Source: Candidatus Saganbacteria bacterium
GTDB taxonomy: Bacteria > Margulisbacteria > WOR-1 > O2-12-FULL-45-9
Direction of reading: 5' to 3'
DNA length: 51,696 nt
Assembly: GCA_013204645.1 (NCBI GenBank)
Contig: JABMSE010000125.1
Location: 1 to 51,696 of the forward strand
A program made the translations under genes and the position numbers. The notes beneath the pieces were generated by a model. That model was not told the DNA's origin, did not search any database, and saw only the letters and a program-made list of their open reading frames with translations. Shown here in pieces: positions 33,664 through 50,528 of the stretch. The first letter of the stretch is position 1, and every line of letters starts with the position of its first letter.

Positions 33664-35622
33664 TTAACGATGCACGTCGTAGACGTCGGATAGTTTCTGA
33701 ATTGCCTTGATAACTTGCTCAAGATGGTTTCGGTCTTTTACATCCACGGTCAAACGCAGGAAAGCAGAACTACCACGCTTAGCAGAACCTTTTGCGGCTG
33801 AAACATTGGTTTTGATCTCGGAAATTTGCGCCAGAATATCCTTTAGGACTCCCATGCGATCAAAGGCCTCGACCTCAATTTCTACGGGAAAAAGCATCTC
33901 GCTTTGAGGATTCCACTCAACTTTGACAATGCGCTCCTTTGGGGTTTCAGAGCTTACAACATTTTTGCAATCCCGACGATGGACAGCAATGCCGCGGCCA
34001 CGGCTAACAAACCCTATGATTTCTTCTCCCGGAATGGGACCGCAACATTTAGAAAACCTCACCAGTACATTTTGCAAGCCAGAAACCGTCACCGCGGATT
34101 TGGCCCTTACACGAGGGCGTGGAACCAAGAGCGGCTTTACCATTTTCTCCTCTTGGGCTACAATGGCTTTGGCTGCCTCGGCTTTCTTTTCCCCTCTTTG
34201 TTTCTTAAACCAGTTTCTTATCTTTACCCGTGCGCCAGCCGTTTTCACAAACCTTAACCAGTCCTGGCTAGGATGGTCCTTTTTGGCCGTTAAAACTTCT
34301 ACAATATCCCCATTACGCAAGCAAAACTCTAGCGGGACAATCCGACCATTTACCTTTGCCCCTACGGTCCGATGCCCAACTTCGGTATGTACATGATAAG
34401 CAAAATCAATCGGAGTTGCTCCGTTGGGCAGCCCAAAAACATCACCCTTAGGAGTAAAAACAAAAACCTCATCTATAAACAGATCAATCTTTAGGCTTTC
34501 CATGAAATCTTTGGCGTCCTTTAGCTCATCCTGCCACTCCAGCATTTGCCTAAACCAAGACATCTTTTGGTCCATACTTTTATCGGTTGCACCTTCTTTA
34601 TAACGCCAGTGTGCAGCAATCCCATACTCGGCAATTTTATGCATTTGTGCGGTTCGAATCTGCACTTCAACCGGCTTTCCCTCGGGACCAATTAAGGTAG
34701 TATGCAATGATTGGTAACCGTTTGATTTTGGCATAGCAATATAATCTCTGAATCTTCCCGGAATAGGCTTCCAGGCTGCATGCACCACCCCCAAAACTGC
34801 ATAACATTCCTTAATGGTATCAACAATTATGCGAACCGCAGTCAAATCATAGATCTCATCAAATTCAATATTCTGGTCTACCATTTTATGGTAGATACTA
34901 TAAAAATGCTTGGGACGACCATTAATTTCTGCCTTAACTCCTACTCTTTTCAACAATTCTTTGGCTTGTTTAATATAGCCCTCAATATAGGCCTCTCGAT
35001 CTCCTCGACTCTCGACTACTTTATTTCTTATTTCATTATATTTATCTGTCTCCAGATAAAGAAAGGAAAGGTCCTCCAATTCCCATTTAAGGCGCCACAT
35101 TCCCAGGCGGTGGGCCAAAGGAGCAAATATTTCACCGGTTTCAAGCGCGGTTTCTTTTTGTTTAGCAGGAGGAAGGTATTTGAGCGTTCTCATATTATGC
35201 AGGCGGTCTGCCAACTTAATAATTATAATGCGGAAGTCTTCACCCATGGCAACAAACATTTTACGGAAATTTTCTGCTTGCCGAACTTCACGGCTAACAA
35301 AAGTAAGTTGGCTAAGCTTTGTGACTCCCTCAACTAATCTGGTTATTTCTTCGCCAAAAATTTTTAAAATGTCTTCCCGGGTAACGTCAGAATCTTCAAC
35401 AACATCATGTAAAAGCGCAGCAGAAATGGTCAGGGGATCCTGCTCCAAATCAGCCAGGATCAGGGCTACGGCCAAGGGATGGGTTATATAGGGGTCTCCG
35501 GAAAGTCTTTTATGTTCTTTGTGGTATTCCTTAGCAAAGAGAAAAGCCTGCGCGATAATATCAAAATCGGCTTTTGGGTTATAAACTTTAATTTTTTTTA
35601 CTAAATCATCAAATTCTTTCAT
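33664..35622 (-). CDS. rel: Bifunctional (p)ppGpp synthetase/hydrolase, canonical long RSH
   Basis: HD motifs: HPLAVA, LLHDVVEDS, KLADRLHNMRTL. Synthetase motifs: GRPKHFYSIYHKM, DLTAVRIIV, RFRDYIAMPKSNGYQSLHT, VEVQIRT. TGS motif: VFTPKGDV. Zinc-finger motif: FSKCCGPIPGEEIIGF...HRRDC. An ACT domain follows. Confidence 0.9.
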   Translation of the reverse strand: MKEFDDLVKKIKVYNPKADFDIIAQAFLFAKEYHKEHKRLSGDPYITHPLAVALILADLEQDPLTISAALLHDVVEDSDVTREDILKIFGEEITRLVEGVTKLSQLTFVSREVRQAENFRKMFVAMGEDFRIIIIKLADRLHNMRTLKYLPPAKQKETALETGEIFAPLAHRLGMWRLKWELEDLSFLYLETDKYNEIRNKVVESRGDREAYIEGYIKQAKELLKRVGVKAEINGRPKHFYSIYHKMVDQNIEFDEIYDLTAVRIIVDTIKECYAVLGVVHAAWKPIPGRFRDYIAMPKSNGYQSLHTTLIGPEGKPVEVQIRTAQMHKIAEYGIAAHWRYKEGATDKSMDQKMSWFRQMLEWQDELKDAKDFMESLKIDLFIDEVFVFTPKGDVFGLPNGATPIDFAYHVHTEVGHRTVGAKVNGRIVPLEFCLRNGDIVEVLTAKKDHPSQDWLRFVKTAGARVKIRNWFKKQRGEKKAEAAKAIVAQEEKMVKPLLVPRPRVRAKSAVTVSGLQNVLVRFSKCCGPIPGEEIIGFVSRGRGIAVHRRDCKNVVSSETPKERIVKVEWNPQSEMLFPVEIEVEAFDRMGVLKDILAQISEIKTNVSAAKGSAKRGSSAFLRLTVDVKDRNHLEQVIKAIQKLSDVYDVHR

Positions 35623-44938: not shown

Positions 44939-47636
44939 AGTAAATTCTCCCAAGATCGTTCTCATAGACGGAAACTCCCTCGCCTATCGTGCCTTCTATG
45001 CCCTCCCCGATACCATGCATACCACTTCTGGTATTACCACCAATGCTATTTACGGTTTTACCAACATGTTAATTAAAGTCTTAGATGAAGAACCTGATTT
45101 TGTGGCAATTTCTTTTGACCGGCCAGAGCCAACTTTTAGGCATAAGGCCTACAAGGCCTATAAAGCAACTAGACAGAAGGCTCCCCCAACGCTCTACGAA
45201 CAAATTCCTTACGTAAAAGAAGTTACAGAAGCCTTTGACATACCAATTTATGAAATTGCCGGCTTCGAAGCTGACGATGTAATTGGAACCCTGGCCAAGG
45301 AAGCGCAAGCCCAAGGTTTTGAGGTAACCATTTTAACCGGTGACCTTGATCCACTGCAACTGGTTAACGAAAAAATAAAGGTGCTGACGACACGCAAAGG
45401 AATAACCGATACTGTCCTCTACGGCGAAAAAGAAGTCGTAGAACGTTATGGCATAGTGCCGGAACAAGTAATTGATTTCAAGGCCTTAAAGGGAGATTCA
45501 TCCGATAACATTCCCGGAGTTCCAACTGTGGGAGATAAAACCGCCAGTCAGCTTTTAAAAGAATTTGGAACCCTTGATAATATCCTGGAGAATGTCGACC
45601 GCATAACGAAAAGGAGTCTAAGAGAAAACATCAAAAATAATGTTGACTTGGCAAAGCTTAGCAAAAAACTAGCCACAATTGTAACCAATGTACCGCTTGA
45701 AATTGACTTTAAGAAATGCAGACGCTCAGCAATTAACTGGCAAAAAATTATCCCCTTGTTTGAAAAATTTGAGTTCAACAGCCTGGTCAAAAAATATTCA
45801 AAGGGGCTAGCCGAATATCAAACTGAAACCGTTATTGAAAAGAAAAGAGATAAAATCTCAAAACTTGATTTTAAATGTGTGCAAAATGAAGAGCAACTAC
45901 AAGAACTCGTTGCTGAATTAGAAAAATCAGAGGCTTTTGCTTTTGACCTAGAAACAACCGGGCTCGATCCCTGGGAAGCCCAGATTGTTGGTATTTCTTT
46001 TTCCACCCAAACCAAATCCGCCTATTATATTCCTTTGCAACATAGTGACAAAATAAATTTGGAATCGCTAAAACCGATCTTTGCCTCAGACAAACTAAAA
46101 ATCGGCCACAACGTTAAATATGACATTGAGGTCCTAAAAAATTCTGGCATCGAAGTCTGTGGTCCTTATTTTGACACCATGGTAGCCGCTTATCTCTTAG
46201 ATCCAATTTCTGGTAAATTTGCCTTAAAGACTTTAGCCAAACAATTTCTGGGGCGCGACATGATAAACCTGATGGATCTTATTGGAAAAAATGGAGAATA
46301 TGATAATTTTTCACAAGTACCAATTGATCTAGCAGTTGACTATGCTTGCTCCGATGCCGAAGCAACTTTTGGCCTCTATGAAATATTTAAACTAGCCCTA
46401 AAAGCACAAAAGTTAGACAAGCTTTTTTATGAAGTAGAAATGCCTTTAATTTCTGTGCTAGTTGAAATAGAGGGCAATGGCGTAAAAATTGATGTTCCAT
46501 TGCTTGCTAAAACCTCCAAACAAATTGACAAATCCCTAAAAACCTTGGAAGAGGATATTTATGCGATTTCTGGAGAAAAATTTAATATTAATTCCCCCAA
46601 ACAACTCTCCCATGTTCTCTTTGATAAATTAATGCTTCCCGTCATAAAAAAAACTAAAACTGGTGCTTCAACCAACATCTCTGTCCTAGAAGAGCTGGCA
46701 GCGCAAAAATTTGAAATCGCTGAAAAACTCATGGAGTATCGTCAGCTAACCAAGCTTAAATCTACCTATGTAGATGTGTTGCCCACCCTGATCAATTCTA
46801 AAACTGGGCGTATCCATACCTCTTTTAACCAAACCATTACCGCCACCGGAAGGCTGTCTAGCTCCAAGCCTAATTTACAAAATATTCCAGTCAAAGGGAA
46901 TTGGGGAAAAATAATTCGCTCGGCTTTTATTCCAGAAAAAAAAGATTGGGTGATTTTGGCGGCTGATTACTCACAAATTGAGCTTCGTATTTTAGCCCAC
47001 ATGAGCCAGGATCCCGAGATGTTAGACGCCTTTAGGCAAAAGCAAGATATTCATAAGAGAACCGCTGCCGAGGTCTATGGAATTTCCGAAGATGAGGTAA
47101 CCGGGAAGATGCGTTCTGCAGCCAAAACAGTTAATTTTGGCATTATCTATGGTATCTCAGATTTTGGCTTGGCCAAACAACTAAAAATCAAAAGACCAGA
47201 GGCAGCAAAATTTATAGAGAGATATTTCAAAAAGCACAAAGGGGTCAAAGAATTTATGGATAAAACCGTAAAAGACGCCAAAGAAAAAGGCTATGTTACG
47301 ACCCTCTTAGGCCGAAAAAGGCCGATGCCCGACATTAACAGCCCCCACTTTGGCATGCGCGCCTTTGCCGAGCGAACCGCCATTAACACCCCAGTCCAAG
47401 GCAGCGCCGCAGACATGATAAAAGTAGCCATGGCCAGAATAAATTCCAAAGGCAAAATTAACAAGGCGAGAATGATTCTTCAAGTTCACGATGAGCTAGT
47501 GTTTGAATGTCCCAAAGAGGAAATAACTACACTTACAAAAATAATAAAAGAAGAAATGGAAGCGGCACTTCCTCTAGATATACCAATAGAAATTGATATT
47601 AGTAGTGGAGAAAATTGGGCCGAGGCAAAATCCTAG
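44925..47636 (+). CDS. polA: DNA polymerase I (5'-3' exonuclease, 3'-5' exonuclease and polymerase domains)
   Basis: LIDGNSLAYRAFYA, DNIPGVPTVGDKTA, FDLETTGLD, DYSQIELRILAH and QVHDELVFE. The GTG start is at 44925. Confidence 0.95.
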   Translation: MKNPKVNSPKIVLIDGNSLAYRAFYALPDTMHTTSGITTNAIYGFTNMLIKVLDEEPDFVAISFDRPEPTFRHKAYKAYKATRQKAPPTLYEQIPYVKEVTEAFDIPIYEIAGFEADDVIGTLAKEAQAQGFEVTILTGDLDPLQLVNEKIKVLTTRKGITDTVLYGEKEVVERYGIVPEQVIDFKALKGDSSDNIPGVPTVGDKTASQLLKEFGTLDNILENVDRITKRSLRENIKNNVDLAKLSKKLATIVTNVPLEIDFKKCRRSAINWQKIIPLFEKFEFNSLVKKYSKGLAEYQTETVIEKKRDKISKLDFKCVQNEEQLQELVAELEKSEAFAFDLETTGLDPWEAQIVGISFSTQTKSAYYIPLQHSDKINLESLKPIFASDKLKIGHNVKYDIEVLKNSGIEVCGPYFDTMVAAYLLDPISGKFALKTLAKQFLGRDMINLMDLIGKNGEYDNFSQVPIDLAVDYACSDAEATFGLYEIFKLALKAQKLDKLFYEVEMPLISVLVEIEGNGVKIDVPLLAKTSKQIDKSLKTLEEDIYAISGEKFNINSPKQLSHVLFDKLMLPVIKKTKTGASTNISVLEELAAQKFEIAEKLMEYRQLTKLKSTYVDVLPTLINSKTGRIHTSFNQTITATGRLSSSKPNLQNIPVKGNWGKIIRSAFIPEKKDWVILAADYSQIELRILAHMSQDPEMLDAFRQKQDIHKRTAAEVYGISEDEVTGKMRSAAKTVNFGIIYGISDFGLAKQLKIKRPEAAKFIERYFKKHKGVKEFMDKTVKDAKEKGYVTTLLGRKRPMPDINSPHFGMRAFAERTAINTPVQGSAADMIKVAMARINSKGKINKARMILQVHDELVFECPKEEITTLTKIIKEEMEAALPLDIPIEIDISSGENWAEAKS

Positions 47637-50449
47637 ACGGCGGGTTCATCAGAGGTTTCGCCCGGCGTCGCTTGCTCTCTCGCCTCTCGCTCAGCAACTG
47701 CATATTCCAATCCCATAGCTTTCCTTTTAAGTAAGTCTAATACATCCCGTTCACTAGGGGTGCAGATATCTCTTCCTCCAATATCGTTTGATTTTCCTGC
47801 TCGTCTTGCTATTTCTCTTATCATTAATCGCTGAAGTTCTCCCACCATCCCTGGTTCCCCCCTACCCCTCATTACATCTTCCACTTCTATGACAACTTCA
47901 ATTATACCTTCTTCTCTTGGAACAGAAAAAGTTTTAATATTGTATCCCATTTCTCCAAACGCCTTTAATAAATCCCCCCCCAATCCAACGCGATCTCGGG
48001 TTATAACAGAAACATAATAGGGACCCATTCGCATATGGGGATTTGTCAAATTATCCCGATGAGCCTGCTTATGCATTCTTTCCAATTGGAGGACCACTTC
48101 TTCTGGTCGGCAACCCGCTGTTCCAATTTTAAAAAACAATTCCTCCACTCCTTGCGCAGAAGATCTCAGCAATGCTAACATTTGAGCTCGTTCCCCATCA
48201 TTCCAATCCTCAGCCGCTCTCCCAACTCTCCCCCCTATCGTCTCTTCTGCATTCGGAGCAAACACCAGAGTTTTCGCCTCCGCGTTATGAACAATCTGCT
48301 TCCAAGACTCATTTTCTGGCCCACAATCTTGCCGCAACCTCAACAATTGTGCCCTTCGTCCTGGTCCAATCCTCACAGAATCAAAATAAGCTCGCGCTTC
48401 ATCGTCTCCTTCTATTTTAGCCAACACAGCCTCAAAATCTGGCCTAAATATAATTTTACCCCTCCGATCTGTTGGATTATATAATAGTCGGAATAAAGCC
48501 CTACAAAGAACTTGATTGGCCTCATACCCACGCCCAAATATTTCTTCAAGTTTTTCCATTCCCACCCGCTTGGCAAATATCTTCAAAACCGCAGTTCTAG
48601 CTACTAATGCCTTGAGAAAACCCTGTGAAGTTAGATATCTTCTAAAAAGGGTAGTATTAACCAATCCCCTAACCGGGACAAAACGTCTGCTACTGGCCAC
48701 ATCCAGGGCTTGGCGACCAATTTCAATAACTTTGGCTCTGTCCGTAAGCGCCTGAGCTTTTAGCGCCCGCCGTAATTCTTGAGCTCCTTTAAGGGTATGA
48801 ATATGATTTAGCCATTCTAATTTAGCCAGGTTAGCCTCTCTCCCAGGGCTAAGCAAAACCTCTACTCGATCGCGATTACGAACTTCAACTGAAAGCGGTC
48901 TTTCGTGATCATTGATCTTTATACCAATAGCTCTACGAAAAACATCACTTCTCATCGCCGCAACATCGTAGCCAGTTGATCCGGGCGGAAACTCTTTAAC
49001 ATCTCCCTTTGGCGTGATAATCTGGACAGGATTTGGCATATCAGCCAGAACCTCAAAAAATTGCTGCGAACTAAGTCCTTCTTTTCGCAAATCATCCAAC
49101 ATTCCCAGCAACAAATTGCGCGCTTCCCTTGGATCATAACCCCTTCTTTGTCTTCTGGCAATCAAACCAAATTGATAATCCTCATACATTGTGGGGGTCA
49201 TAATATGAATCAACAATTCCCCAAAGCCTTCTACGTCTACCCAGGTTTCCAAAAATCGATGAAAATTGGTCAAAGGATTGTTTATAAAATCATTTTGACG
49301 GCCTTTAATAGGACGAAACAATTTGTGTATGCGAAATTGAATCGTGGCACATTCTTGTGGTCCTCTAGAAACTATGACATTGATACGCCAGACATCACTG
49401 GGAGAAACTTCGTTAAGATCATGCAGTTGTATTCTCTGATGAAGCTCATAAATCCCCCGGCGTTCCAATTTAACTTTCACCCCGACCCCTAATTCTCTTC
49501 TTATGGCAGCGCAAATTACCTCTACCCTAGGTTTGCTTGCCCTCACAACCATGGCCTGTCTTCTTTGAACTCGTCTATATTCTCTAGGCTCAAGATATTT
49601 AAAAGAAATGTCCTCATAGCTTCGTTTTAGATACCAGATACCAAAACGATCGGCCATCGGCACATAAACCTTCATGGTCTCCTCTGCCTTTTCGGCTTGT
49701 CTTTCGTTTTTTGTCCTTCCCCCCTTAGCTTTCATACAATCCAAGGTATTCATATTATCATTTCGATCAAAAAGTTTGATCAACAAGGTTGCAATTTCTT
49801 CGGCTCCAGCCTCTAATAATTTCAATATTATGGCAACGTGCGTAGGCATGGGGCCCGTGTAGTCAGGCTCTTTTCCCGCTTCAGTAACACCATTGGCTAA
49901 AAAAGCAACCCGCGGAGTCAACATCTTTTCTAATTGTTCAGGTGTAACCCTTTTTCCAGCTAACATCACATCTTCTATTACGTCATGAATAAGGATTGCG
50001 GCCAACTCCTCTGGATCAGTCATTCCACATTTTCTAGCCTCTTCTGCTACACTTACAGGATGTTCTATATAGGGCTCCTTTTCCACACCTTCCCTCCGCA
50101 GCTTAGCCCGAACCCCGTCACGGAATACACCAAAATGCCCGGTGAAAGCCAGCTTATAGGCTACGTCAAGAAGCTCATTAGCCGCAGCTGAAAGATTCGG
50201 TAAACTTGCTTTTAATCTTCGTAGGCGCGCTGTATAGGGGGCAGGATTAATAAAAGAAGGTCTAAAAAGAGGTGTCACTCCAGCAACGTGGGTTACGGCC
50301 CGGGCTGCTGTAGGGGTAGAGGGACTGCGGCGCGGCTTCTTTGTTGTAACAAATTGCCTAATTCTAACTTGCCTATCTCGCCAAAGAGCAAAATAATCTA
50401 CGTGACTACGTCTTGGTTGTGTAACTACTCTCAATAAAGGCTTTGCCAT
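47633..50449 (-). CDS. Divergent long RelA/SpoT homolog (HD hydrolase motifs intact, pseudo-synthetase, TGS, long helical insert, ACT-like C-terminus)
   Basis: HD motifs: HPVSVA, LIHDVIEDV, KLFDRNDNMNTL. Degenerate synthetase blocks: ERRGIYELHQRI, DVWRINVIV, RQNDFINNPLTNFHRFLET, ELLIHIMT. TGS motif: IITPKGDVKEFPPGSTGYDVA. I prefer the ATG at 50449 (MAKPLL). The track ORF begins at a TTG at 50461. Confidence 0.75.
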   Translation of the reverse strand: MAKPLLRVVTQPRRSHVDYFALWRDRQVRIRQFVTTKKPRRSPSTPTAARAVTHVAGVTPLFRPSFINPAPYTARLRRLKASLPNLSAAANELLDVAYKLAFTGHFGVFRDGVRAKLRREGVEKEPYIEHPVSVAEEARKCGMTDPEELAAILIHDVIEDVMLAGKRVTPEQLEKMLTPRVAFLANGVTEAGKEPDYTGPMPTHVAIILKLLEAGAEEIATLLIKLFDRNDNMNTLDCMKAKGGRTKNERQAEKAEETMKVYVPMADRFGIWYLKRSYEDISFKYLEPREYRRVQRRQAMVVRASKPRVEVICAAIRRELGVGVKVKLERRGIYELHQRIQLHDLNEVSPSDVWRINVIVSRGPQECATIQFRIHKLFRPIKGRQNDFINNPLTNFHRFLETWVDVEGFGELLIHIMTPTMYEDYQFGLIARRQRRGYDPREARNLLLGMLDDLRKEGLSSQQFFEVLADMPNPVQIITPKGDVKEFPPGSTGYDVAAMRSDVFRRAIGIKINDHERPLSVEVRNRDRVEVLLSPGREANLAKLEWLNHIHTLKGAQELRRALKAQALTDRAKVIEIGRQALDVASSRRFVPVRGLVNTTLFRRYLTSQGFLKALVARTAVLKIFAKRVGMEKLEEIFGRGYEANQVLCRALFRLLYNPTDRRGKIIFRPDFEAVLAKIEGDDEARAYFDSVRIGPGRRAQLLRLRQDCGPENESWKQIVHNAEAKTLVFAPNAEETIGGRVGRAAEDWNDGERAQMLALLRSSAQGVEELFFKIGTAGCRPEEVVLQLERMHKQAHRDNLTNPHMRMGPYYVSVITRDRVGLGGDLLKAFGEMGYNIKTFSVPREEGIIEVVIEVEDVMRGRGEPGMVGELQRLMIREIARRAGKSNDIGGRDICTPSERDVLDLLKRKAMGLEYAVAEREAREQATPGETSDEPAV

Positions 50450-50528
50450 AAAACGCCCCAATTCATTATATTATAACCCAATTACCTATCGTCCGCATAT
50501 TCCAAAAATTTCACTTTTTGGGGAAATT

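Follow-up and report, generated by a model that had tools for sequence, protein, structure and literature searches.

The window analysed here is the whole 51,696-nucleotide stretch of contig JABMSE010000125.1 (assembly GCA_013204645.1, Candidatus Saganbacteria bacterium), and it encodes, besides a canonical rel gene, a second and highly divergent long RelA/SpoT homolog (RSH), which we refer to as RSH2. The gene is an uninterrupted minus-strand open reading frame (ORF) of 2.8 kb, whose product is 942 amino acids (aa) long when read from the TTG at 50461 and 938 aa long when read from the ATG at 50449, four codons in. The ATG is the more likely start; the 938-aa form is entry P0001 of a public protein collection, and residue numbers for the window copy refer to it throughout. 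The stop codon (47633-47635) overlaps that of polA, the two convergent ORFs ending at 47633 and 47636. The 67-nt spacer (50462-50528) between RSH2 and the upstream queA has a TATAAT box some 20 nt ahead of the ATG, and no matching -35 element was found in that spacer. Aligned by BLASTP with canonical Rel from the window, the protein shows 28% identity over 454 columns (E = 4e-38). The initial annotation, made from the sequence alone, had proposed a second RSH of about 940 aa besides canonical rel, with a competent hydrolase domain, a degenerate synthetase domain and a retained TGS domain and ACT-like end; the length and the likeness to Rel agree with this, and every motif string that it quoted occurs in the RSH2 ORF and in the canonical rel ORF.

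Profile searches retrieve the domain order of a long RSH at much reduced scores. Among Pfam models, HD_4 (66.7 bits, cut-off 27.2) and TGS (25.0 bits, cut-off 22.2) are matched above threshold, and RelA_SpoT (15.4 bits) and ACT (17.9 bits) fall below their cut-offs of 27, as compared with 165, 154, 81 and 70 bits for canonical rel on the corresponding models. The NCBIfam model TIGR00691 (spoT_relA) gives RSH2 213.9 bits, below its cut-off of 499.2 (canonical rel scores 804), and the SpoT equivalog NF008303 gives 151.3, below a cut-off of 947. Among 13 members of the RSH2 family, which is described below, HD_4 and TGS were found in all and RelA_SpoT in 10 at E <= 0.001, and the zinc-finger domain PF19296 in none; the CC...H...C columns of the zinc finger are gaps in every member checked there (the window copy, P0072, P0002, L022, L023 and L025). 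With an HD domain, a RelA_SpoT fold and TGS and ACT/RRM domains present, and the zinc-finger (ZFD/RIS) domain absent, RSH2 is a member of the long RSH superfamily.

The residues of the hydrolase site are intact. Using B. subtilis Rel numbering, verified by counting along the HMMER alignment to 6yxa, all 12 positions of the HD set (R44, Y50, H53, H77, D78, E81, D82, K141, D144, R145, N148 and T151) are kept in the window copy, and they are also conserved in nearly all of its 33 relatives, such that the domain is predicted from its sequence to be hydrolase-competent. The family additionally possesses an HD loop motif, GVTE(A/L)GKEPDY, in which G192 and K193 are invariant, and which ordinary Rel proteins do not have.

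The synthetase domain is degenerate at its catalytic positions. Three replacements are invariant across the family, R241 to E, Y308 to H and E324 to L, the last of which removes the catalytic Glu in all 34 members; further changes include loss of G240, S247 to E, R269 to N and S310 to F, and K304 is variable. As units, the G-R-P-K motif and the AAHWxYK block have disappeared, as has the G-loop Tyr, and of the synthetase catalytic set (G240-R241-x-K243, D264, Y308, E323/324, Q, R) only D264 is kept, together with N306. The window copy carries three extra changes (H312 to E, Q326 to H and R328 to M), and the same trio is found in the WOR-1 metagenome-assembled genome (MAG) sequence L022. A residue-level alignment thus finds synthetase catalytic residues lost, the Glu (E324 to L) included, in agreement with what had been proposed. 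Without its catalytic Glu, and with the GRPK motif and the G-loop Tyr gone as well, the domain cannot transfer pyrophosphate; the Tyr has been found to be essential in synthetases (PMC7229694). Canonical rel provides the single match to PF04607 above cut-off in the genome. Decay of the domain has not been random: mean pairwise identity within RSH2 is 45% for the HD domain, 39% for the pseudo-synthetase domain and 35% for TGS, and the pseudo-synthetase domain has 14 positions conserved in at least 90% of members, at 26% identity to real synthetase domains. From this second-highest domain conservation and from the invariant replacement residues we infer a repurposed domain under selection, most likely serving as a regulatory or scaffolding pseudo-domain.

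An AlphaFold2 model of the window copy, run on the 13-sequence alignment described below, has a mean predicted local distance difference test score (pLDDT) of 75.8 and a predicted template modelling score of 0.63. Residues 65-613 and 748-931 are confidently placed, and residues 1-64 and 614-747 score below 50. An ACT-like beta-alpha-beta-beta-alpha-beta unit is modelled at residues 807-896 (pLDDT about 80-90) which, together with the TGS match, supports the retained C-terminal domains of the initial annotation. Foldseek searches of the PDB return B. subtilis Rel (6yxa, E = 1e-24), full-length A. baumannii SpoT (7qpr, E = 1.6e-21) and ribosome-bound RelA, and the modelled HD and synthetase half superposes on the N-terminal domain of S. 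aureus Rel (7oiw) with a target template modelling (TM) score of 0.91 and a root-mean-square deviation of 2.0 A. A short member of the family (L004, 737 aa) is modelled at pLDDT 82.8 and has the same fold matches.

Two further regions had been described as novel, namely about 130 residues ahead of the HD domain and about 250 helical-looking residues replacing the zinc finger, and both descriptions need to be divided. At the N-terminus only about 64 residues are of low confidence and probably disordered, and residues 65-104 form confident helices, the second of which is homologous to the first helix of Rel. The region in place of the zinc finger is indeed helical, and the zinc-finger domain is absent, but it consists of a HEL/AH domain of about 110 aa shared by the whole family plus an insert of about 150 aa specific to the window copy. 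Both the extended N-terminus and the missing zinc finger characterize the family as a whole, and it is the 150-aa insert, the insertions in HD loops and the C-terminal tail (marked as window-specific in Table 1) that are unique to this copy.

The 150-aa insert has no donor in the genome (tblastn), no relative in the family and no Pfam match. We considered an origin by mobile element or duplication and rejected it, as the insert resembles neither other parts of the protein nor the inserts found in other members, contains no tandem repeats, does not break with the surrounding composition and is flanked by no repeats beyond chance 11-12-mers. Both of its flanks are confidently modelled. Four other members (P0067, P0090, P0094 and P0096; 819-873 aa) carry inserts of their own there, helical or coiled-coil-like and unrelated to one another; this point of the helical domain is an insertion hot spot of the family. 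At the N-terminus, a motif of the form [LIV][LIV]R.x-D-L-x-R-W (type LIRVRDLDRW, e.g. residues 10-19 of P0002) is present in 14 of the 34 members, against a mean of 0.2 and a maximum of 2 in shuffled sequences, and is degenerate in the window copy. The His of TGS that senses tRNA-CCA is kept in 17 of the 34 RSH2 members, as compared with 12 of 12 ordinary Rel proteins.

Table 1 Features of the RSH2 gene and its partner rel in the window (residues of the 938-aa form)
Feature	Coordinates	Strand	Remarks
RSH2 gene	47633..50461	-	Divergent long RelA/SpoT homolog
N-terminal extension, residues 1-64	50258..50449	-	Arg/Val/Pro/Thr-rich, pLDDT <50, probably disordered
Helices ahead of HD core, residues 65-104	50138..50257	-	Confident model; motif PAPY..RL..L; homolog of first helix of Rel
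HD hydrolase domain, residues 105-300	49550..50137	-	12 catalytic/substrate positions kept; loop motif GVTE(A/L)GKEPDY
Window-specific 8-aa insertion DGVRAKLR, residues 111-118	50096..50119	-	HD loop between R44 and Y50 equivalents
Window-specific 7-aa insertion KGGRTKN, residues 242-248	49706..49726	-	After HD motif DR..N..T
Pseudo-synthetase domain, residues 301-432	49154..49549	-	Fold kept, catalytic motifs replaced
Core/linker helices from pseudo-synthetase to TGS, residues 433-472	49034..49153	-	AAHWxYK block of Rel gone
TGS domain, residues 473-540	48830..49033	-	tRNA-CCA-sensing His of Rel replaced by Arg
Helical (HEL/AH) domain, first part, residues 541-615	48605..48829	-	Common to family
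Window-specific insert of about 150 aa, residues 616-766	48152..48604	-	Predicted helical, mostly pLDDT <50; family insertion hot spot
Helical domain, second part, residues 767-800	48050..48151	-	FFKIGTAG corresponds to family motif FL..IG.G; no zinc finger after
ACT/RRM-like domain, residues 801-885	47795..48049	-	Beta-alpha-beta-beta-alpha-beta in model; Pfam ACT 17.9 bits
C-terminal helix (family-wide) and window-specific acidic tail, residues 920-938	47636..47794	-	From alignment and model
Canonical rel, 652 aa, partner gene	33664..35622	-	Bifunctional type; HD, synthetase residues and zinc finger intact; about 60 aa of helical domain missing

RSH2 belongs to a small and well-delimited family. 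Its nearest proteins in a collection of 5.8 billion are P0002 (37% identity) and P0003 (32%), the others being ordinary Rel at about 28%. Among the genomes of 60 relatives searched, a paralog of about 735 aa recurs, 33-39% identical to query residues ~70-615 and 773-891 and often located 11-14 kb from canonical rel on the same contig. A profile built from a 13-sequence alignment and run against 1.84 billion representatives retrieves about 36 clusters that match over one full-length stretch, at 987 to ~460 bits, and these constitute RSH2; ordinary Rel proteins reach at most 442 bits, in two stretches that end near profile position 620. The hosts are MAGs of Candidatus Margulisiibacteriota, candidate division WOR-1 or Candidatus Saganbacteria. 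Margulisiibacteriota is an uncultured sister phylum of Cyanobacteria, and we found no literature linking Margulisbacteria and ppGpp. As far as such searches can establish, RSH2 is therefore not a common RSH subfamily that has already been classified.

With the profile run over 146 genomes of the phylum (64 from the class of the window and 82 from other classes), RSH2 is present in 22 of the 64 genomes of the WOR-1/Saganbacteria-type class, with two additional copies truncated at contig ends, and in none of the 82 genomes of other Margulisiibacteriota classes. Carriers include 10 of 16 genomes in family f1 and 8 of 15 in f2, and others belong to f6, f8 and f10. Co-occurrence with rel, which the initial annotation had suggested checking, is almost complete: canonical rel accompanies RSH2 in every genome except one 51%-complete MAG. 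The block of the window in which RSH2 lies convergent to polA, followed by tsf, rpsB, a PorV-like CTD gene, yggS, sepF, proC, pfkB and rel, recurs in three relatives (L016, L018 and L020), and the adjacency of RSH2 and polA recurs in four more (L015, L021, L022 and L027). No upstream partner or operon is conserved across sub-lineages, the adjacency to queA being specific to the window.

A maximum-likelihood tree built on 69 long RSHs resolves the 34 RSH2 rows as monophyletic (Shimodaira-Hasegawa-like approximate likelihood ratio test, SH-aLRT, 100), with the window copy sister to P0072 (98), and the canonical Rel proteins of the lineage form a separate clade (100) inside ordinary bacterial Rel. 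A tree that places RSH2 together with the Rel of its own lineage is 3.3 log-likelihood units better and is not rejected by an approximately unbiased (AU) test (p-AU 0.57); the data thus allow, but do not prove, duplication within the lineage and subsequent acceleration. RSH2 is a vertically inherited Rel paralog confined to one class of Margulisiibacteriota.

Certain RSH matches from Patescibacteria, Woesebacteria and Shapirobacteria MAGs (L028-L036) were considered as members of the family and rejected, since they keep Y308 and mostly the catalytic Glu, and so represent a different type lacking the zinc-finger domain. These proteins are about 580-630 aa long, with an intact HD domain, no zinc finger and a partly eroded synthetase domain (K243 to N, Q326 to A, R328 to V/A/T, and E324 to K in three).

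The canonical Rel that accompanies RSH2 is itself altered. In RSH2-bearing families it is only about 650 aa long (the rel of the window and relatives L040-L047), since the helical domain, which lies between TGS and the zinc finger, is short of about 60 aa; the deletion takes in the '...IGYG...' segment and leaves the zinc finger in place. RSH2 holds the corresponding FL..IG.G segment that its partner has lost, and lacks the zinc finger that its partner holds, which looks like reciprocal domain loss between paralogs. This coupling is not strict, because one genome (G043) has RSH2 together with a full-length Rel.

Moreover, RSH2 and Rel are not the only long RSHs of the class. A single Rel had been expected in this lineage; instead, the class holds a radiation of long-RSH paralogs. 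On another contig of the same genome (C48; L039:505-3141, minus strand), an ORF of about 880 aa resembles a doubly degenerate long RSH, with 22 bits on HD_4 (cut-off 27.2), 'AALLRDTATF' for LLHDVVED, 'LANKMSKL' for LADRLHNM and 'ISFQVLT' for vEvQIRT, and with 20% identity to the Rel of relatives (BLASTP, E = 3e-5). A third paralog group, with frames of 832-890 aa in the genomes of relatives, comprises L052 (G016), L053 (G004), L054 (G017) and L055 (G021) and forms its own clade (SH-aLRT 100); its HD..ED motif is intact and R-P-K and NGY(Q/R)SLHT are kept, and the catalytic Glu is replaced by Arg (vRFQIRT). More divergent RSH copies are G021_x745, G002_x749, G057_x777, G007_x813 and G036_relA (= P0110). 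Lastly, a relative without RSH2 contains a 96-aa fragment (G010:C26:618-899), interrupted by a TAA in frame, which matches RSH2 residues 211-310 at 34% identity and may be the relic of a lost RSH2 gene.

Taken as a whole, we consider that RSH2 is probably a monofunctional alarmone hydrolase (Hs type), regulated by its pseudo-synthetase and C-terminal domains and not responding to starved ribosomes. Under this proposal, the Mn-dependent HD site of RSH2 would cleave the 3'-pyrophosphate of (p)ppGpp made by canonical Rel, which is the only credible synthetase in the genome, and the pseudo-synthetase, TGS, helical and ACT-like domains would probably tune this hydrolase allosterically, by analogy with A. 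baumannii SpoT, for which such control has been demonstrated. Loss of the zinc finger, together with relaxation of the tRNA-sensing His, suggests that RSH2 no longer reads the starved ribosome.

Several observations weigh against this proposal. The window copy is the most derived member of the family, its end branch measuring 1.3 where the median is 0.79. Its 8-aa insertion (11 aa relative to the family consensus) between the equivalents of R44 and Y50, and its loss of the equivalent of Lys45, could impair or retune substrate binding, going by the alignment. As the HD site of canonical Rel is itself intact, there is no obvious need for a second hydrolase. The global arrangement of the model does not tell a compact SpoT-like state from an extended one, with TM scores of 0.41-0.49 to both 7qpr and ribosome-bound RelA for the window copy and the short member alike. 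Finally, strict conservation of the replacement residues in the pseudo-synthetase domain could mean a new ligand or chemistry rather than scaffolding alone. The family-invariant replacement set (E-x-R..YEL..R, D-x-W-R-x-N, N-G-H-R-F and L-L-x-Q-I-R) might make up a pocket that senses a new ligand, or even catalyses a reaction, and couples another nucleotide or metabolite signal to alarmone hydrolysis, a suggestion that we regard as unlikely.

A related explanation is that the HD domain acts on another substrate, such as (p)ppApp, pGpp or another 3'- or 2'-phosphorylated nucleotide, and that the remodelled pocket binds a matching signal. The HD loop motif found in RSH2 and not in ordinary Rel (G.TE.GKEP.., with its invariant G192 and K193) would fit such a change, as would the presence in canonical Rel of a (p)ppGpp hydrolase site; moreover, the fold accepts other nucleotides, since the fold search also reaches small alarmone hydrolases, the (p)ppApp hydrolase 7smg and a MESH1 structure (9chy) whose ligand is not an alarmone. 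Yet RSH2 keeps the whole Rel-type set of (p)ppGpp hydrolase residues, its best matches in both structure and sequence are long Rel enzymes and not ppApp hydrolases, and the genome offers no candidate (p)ppApp synthetase, having just one good PF04607 match. A different substrate thus seems to us rather improbable.

Alternatively, the family could be one of hydrolases in which the window copy has been disabled by its insertions, leaving a non-catalytic regulator or a gene drifting towards loss. The branch of this copy is the longest of its neighbourhood, two HD loops carry insertions, the 150-aa insert is of low confidence and lacks homologs, there are extra substitutions in the pseudo-synthetase domain, and the RelA_SpoT and ACT models are matched below threshold. 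Decay of RSH paralogs does occur in this lineage, given the degenerate ORF on contig C48 and the stop-interrupted fragment in a related genome. However, the reading frame is uninterrupted over its 2.8 kb, the catalytic residues of the HD domain are all intact, the extra substitutions (E, H and M) recur in the WOR-1 MAG sequence L022, and other members tolerate unrelated inserts at the same site, whose flanks are confidently modelled here, so that we judge a disabled copy decidedly unlikely. It is very improbable that the remodelled domain goes on working as a nucleotidyl- or pyrophospho-transferase with different catalytic residues, for although the Mg-binding D264 and N306 are invariant and the replacements (E, H, R, F and L) conserved, all 34 members have Leu for the catalytic Glu, neither the ATP-binding Arg/Lys motif nor the guanine-stacking Tyr survives, and we know of no RSH synthetase that works without these three elements.

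The amino acid composition of RSH2 had also prompted the suggestion that it is of foreign origin. The protein is Arg-rich as described (Arg 11.1%, Lys 5.1%), with an R/(R+K) of 0.68-0.69 against a window mean of 0.41 (standard deviation 0.12), and by Arg fraction it ranks among the highest 0.2% of the 1013 open frames in the genome that reach 250 aa. Horizontal acquisition from a donor of other composition would account for this, and RSH2 is not nested in the Rel clade of its lineage in the free tree. However, GC content at third codon positions is within the normal range (0.358, against a genome mean of 0.391 with standard deviation 0.041), and Arg-richness is found across the family in its different hosts (mean R/(R+K) about 0.55, up to 0.68). 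Consequently, the Arg bias is a property of the protein family and carries no nucleotide signature of transfer. Further, the polA to rel synteny is kept across genera, the family is confined to one class, the 1.84 billion representatives contain no closer relatives outside that class, and the AU test does not reject a shared origin with the lineage's Rel. On the strength of the ordinary third-position composition, the family-wide Arg-richness, the conserved synteny and the class-restricted distribution we rejected a foreign origin, which for this genome is already largely refuted and has in our opinion scarcely any chance of being correct.

The closest functional parallel to the hydrolase that we propose is SpoT of A. 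baumannii, a long RSH for which experiments have shown that it only hydrolyses and that its pseudo-synthetase domain is regulatory (Tamman et al. 2023, PMC9974481; PDB 7QPR). Like this SpoT[Hs] of Moraxellaceae, RSH2 stands beside a synthetase-competent paralog and combines an intact HD domain and a dead synthetase domain with retained TGS, helical and ACT/RRM domains. There are nevertheless clear differences. By sequence, B. subtilis Rel (3.4e-40) is a better match to RSH2 than A. baumannii SpoT is (4.5e-24). RSH2 is of independent origin in another phylum, it lacks the zinc finger that fine-tunes SpoT, and it has an N-terminal extension of about 60-100 aa; it is paired with a Rel whose hydrolase site is intact, whereas SpoT[Hs] is paired with a hydrolase-dead RelA. 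RSH2 does not descend from the gammaproteobacterial RelA/SpoT duplication but forms its own class-restricted clade, and the likeness is one of functional analogy only. In being a duplicated long RSH in which one catalytic domain has become a conserved regulatory pseudo-domain, RSH2 also recalls the RelA of Beta- and Gammaproteobacteria, which is its opposite in that the hydrolase is dead and the synthetase alive and activated by ribosomes. To our knowledge, work on long RSHs of this kind, in which a regulatory pseudo-synthetase domain goes with hydrolase activity alone, has so far been confined to one proteobacterial family.

Lineage-specific second copies of long RSHs that evolve faster than the Rel beside them have been described as RshA to RshD (Atkinson, Tenson and Hauryliuk 2011, PMC3153485). 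The groups were defined for Actinobacteria, Bacteroidetes, Bacilli and Deltaproteobacteria, and the taxonomic ranges published for them do not include Margulisiibacteriota (PMC3153485). RshC lacks both the CC and ACT domains, as does RshA of Salinispora, and loss of CC with ACT kept is reported for some Pasteurellaceae SpoT and for plant Rsh1 (PMC3153485). RSH2 resembles RshA to RshD as an extra, fast-evolving long RSH of a single group, but differs in keeping ACT while CC/ZFD is absent. It is set apart from them and from the SpoT[Hs] of Moraxellaceae by taxonomy, tree position and scores on curated models, the comparison with RshA to RshD being one of published ranges and not of sequences. 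We are aware of no Margulisiibacteriota genomes in 2011. A later classification (Jimmy et al. 2020) recognises 13 subfamilies of long RSHs. Plant RSH1, compared by description only, likewise has TGS, helical and ACT domains with an unconserved CC/zinc finger, and Arabidopsis RSH1 is regarded as hydrolase-only; unlike RSH2, plant RSH1 is eukaryotic and targeted to plastids, and its synthetase motifs are far less eroded.

By itself, RSH2 opens no new kind of biology, and adds to the known divergent second copies of long RSHs. As a hydrolase-only enzyme, it would be an independent, older and more radical case than that of SpoT[Hs], in which the zinc finger was lost, an N-terminal extension gained, and the remodelled pocket conserved. 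It would thereby offer a natural experiment on which regulatory domains are needed for the hydrolase-on state, and on how alarmone synthesis and degradation are shared out after duplication, even in reduced genomes. Should the replacement residues prove to form a new ligand-sensing pocket, then a class with genomes of just 1.2-2 Mb would run a multi-paralog RSH circuit in which the sensing domains of the ancestral Rel have been partitioned among a Rel[HS] with a shortened helical domain, an RSH2[Hs] without a zinc finger, and the third-group (RSH3-type) and doubly degenerate copies.

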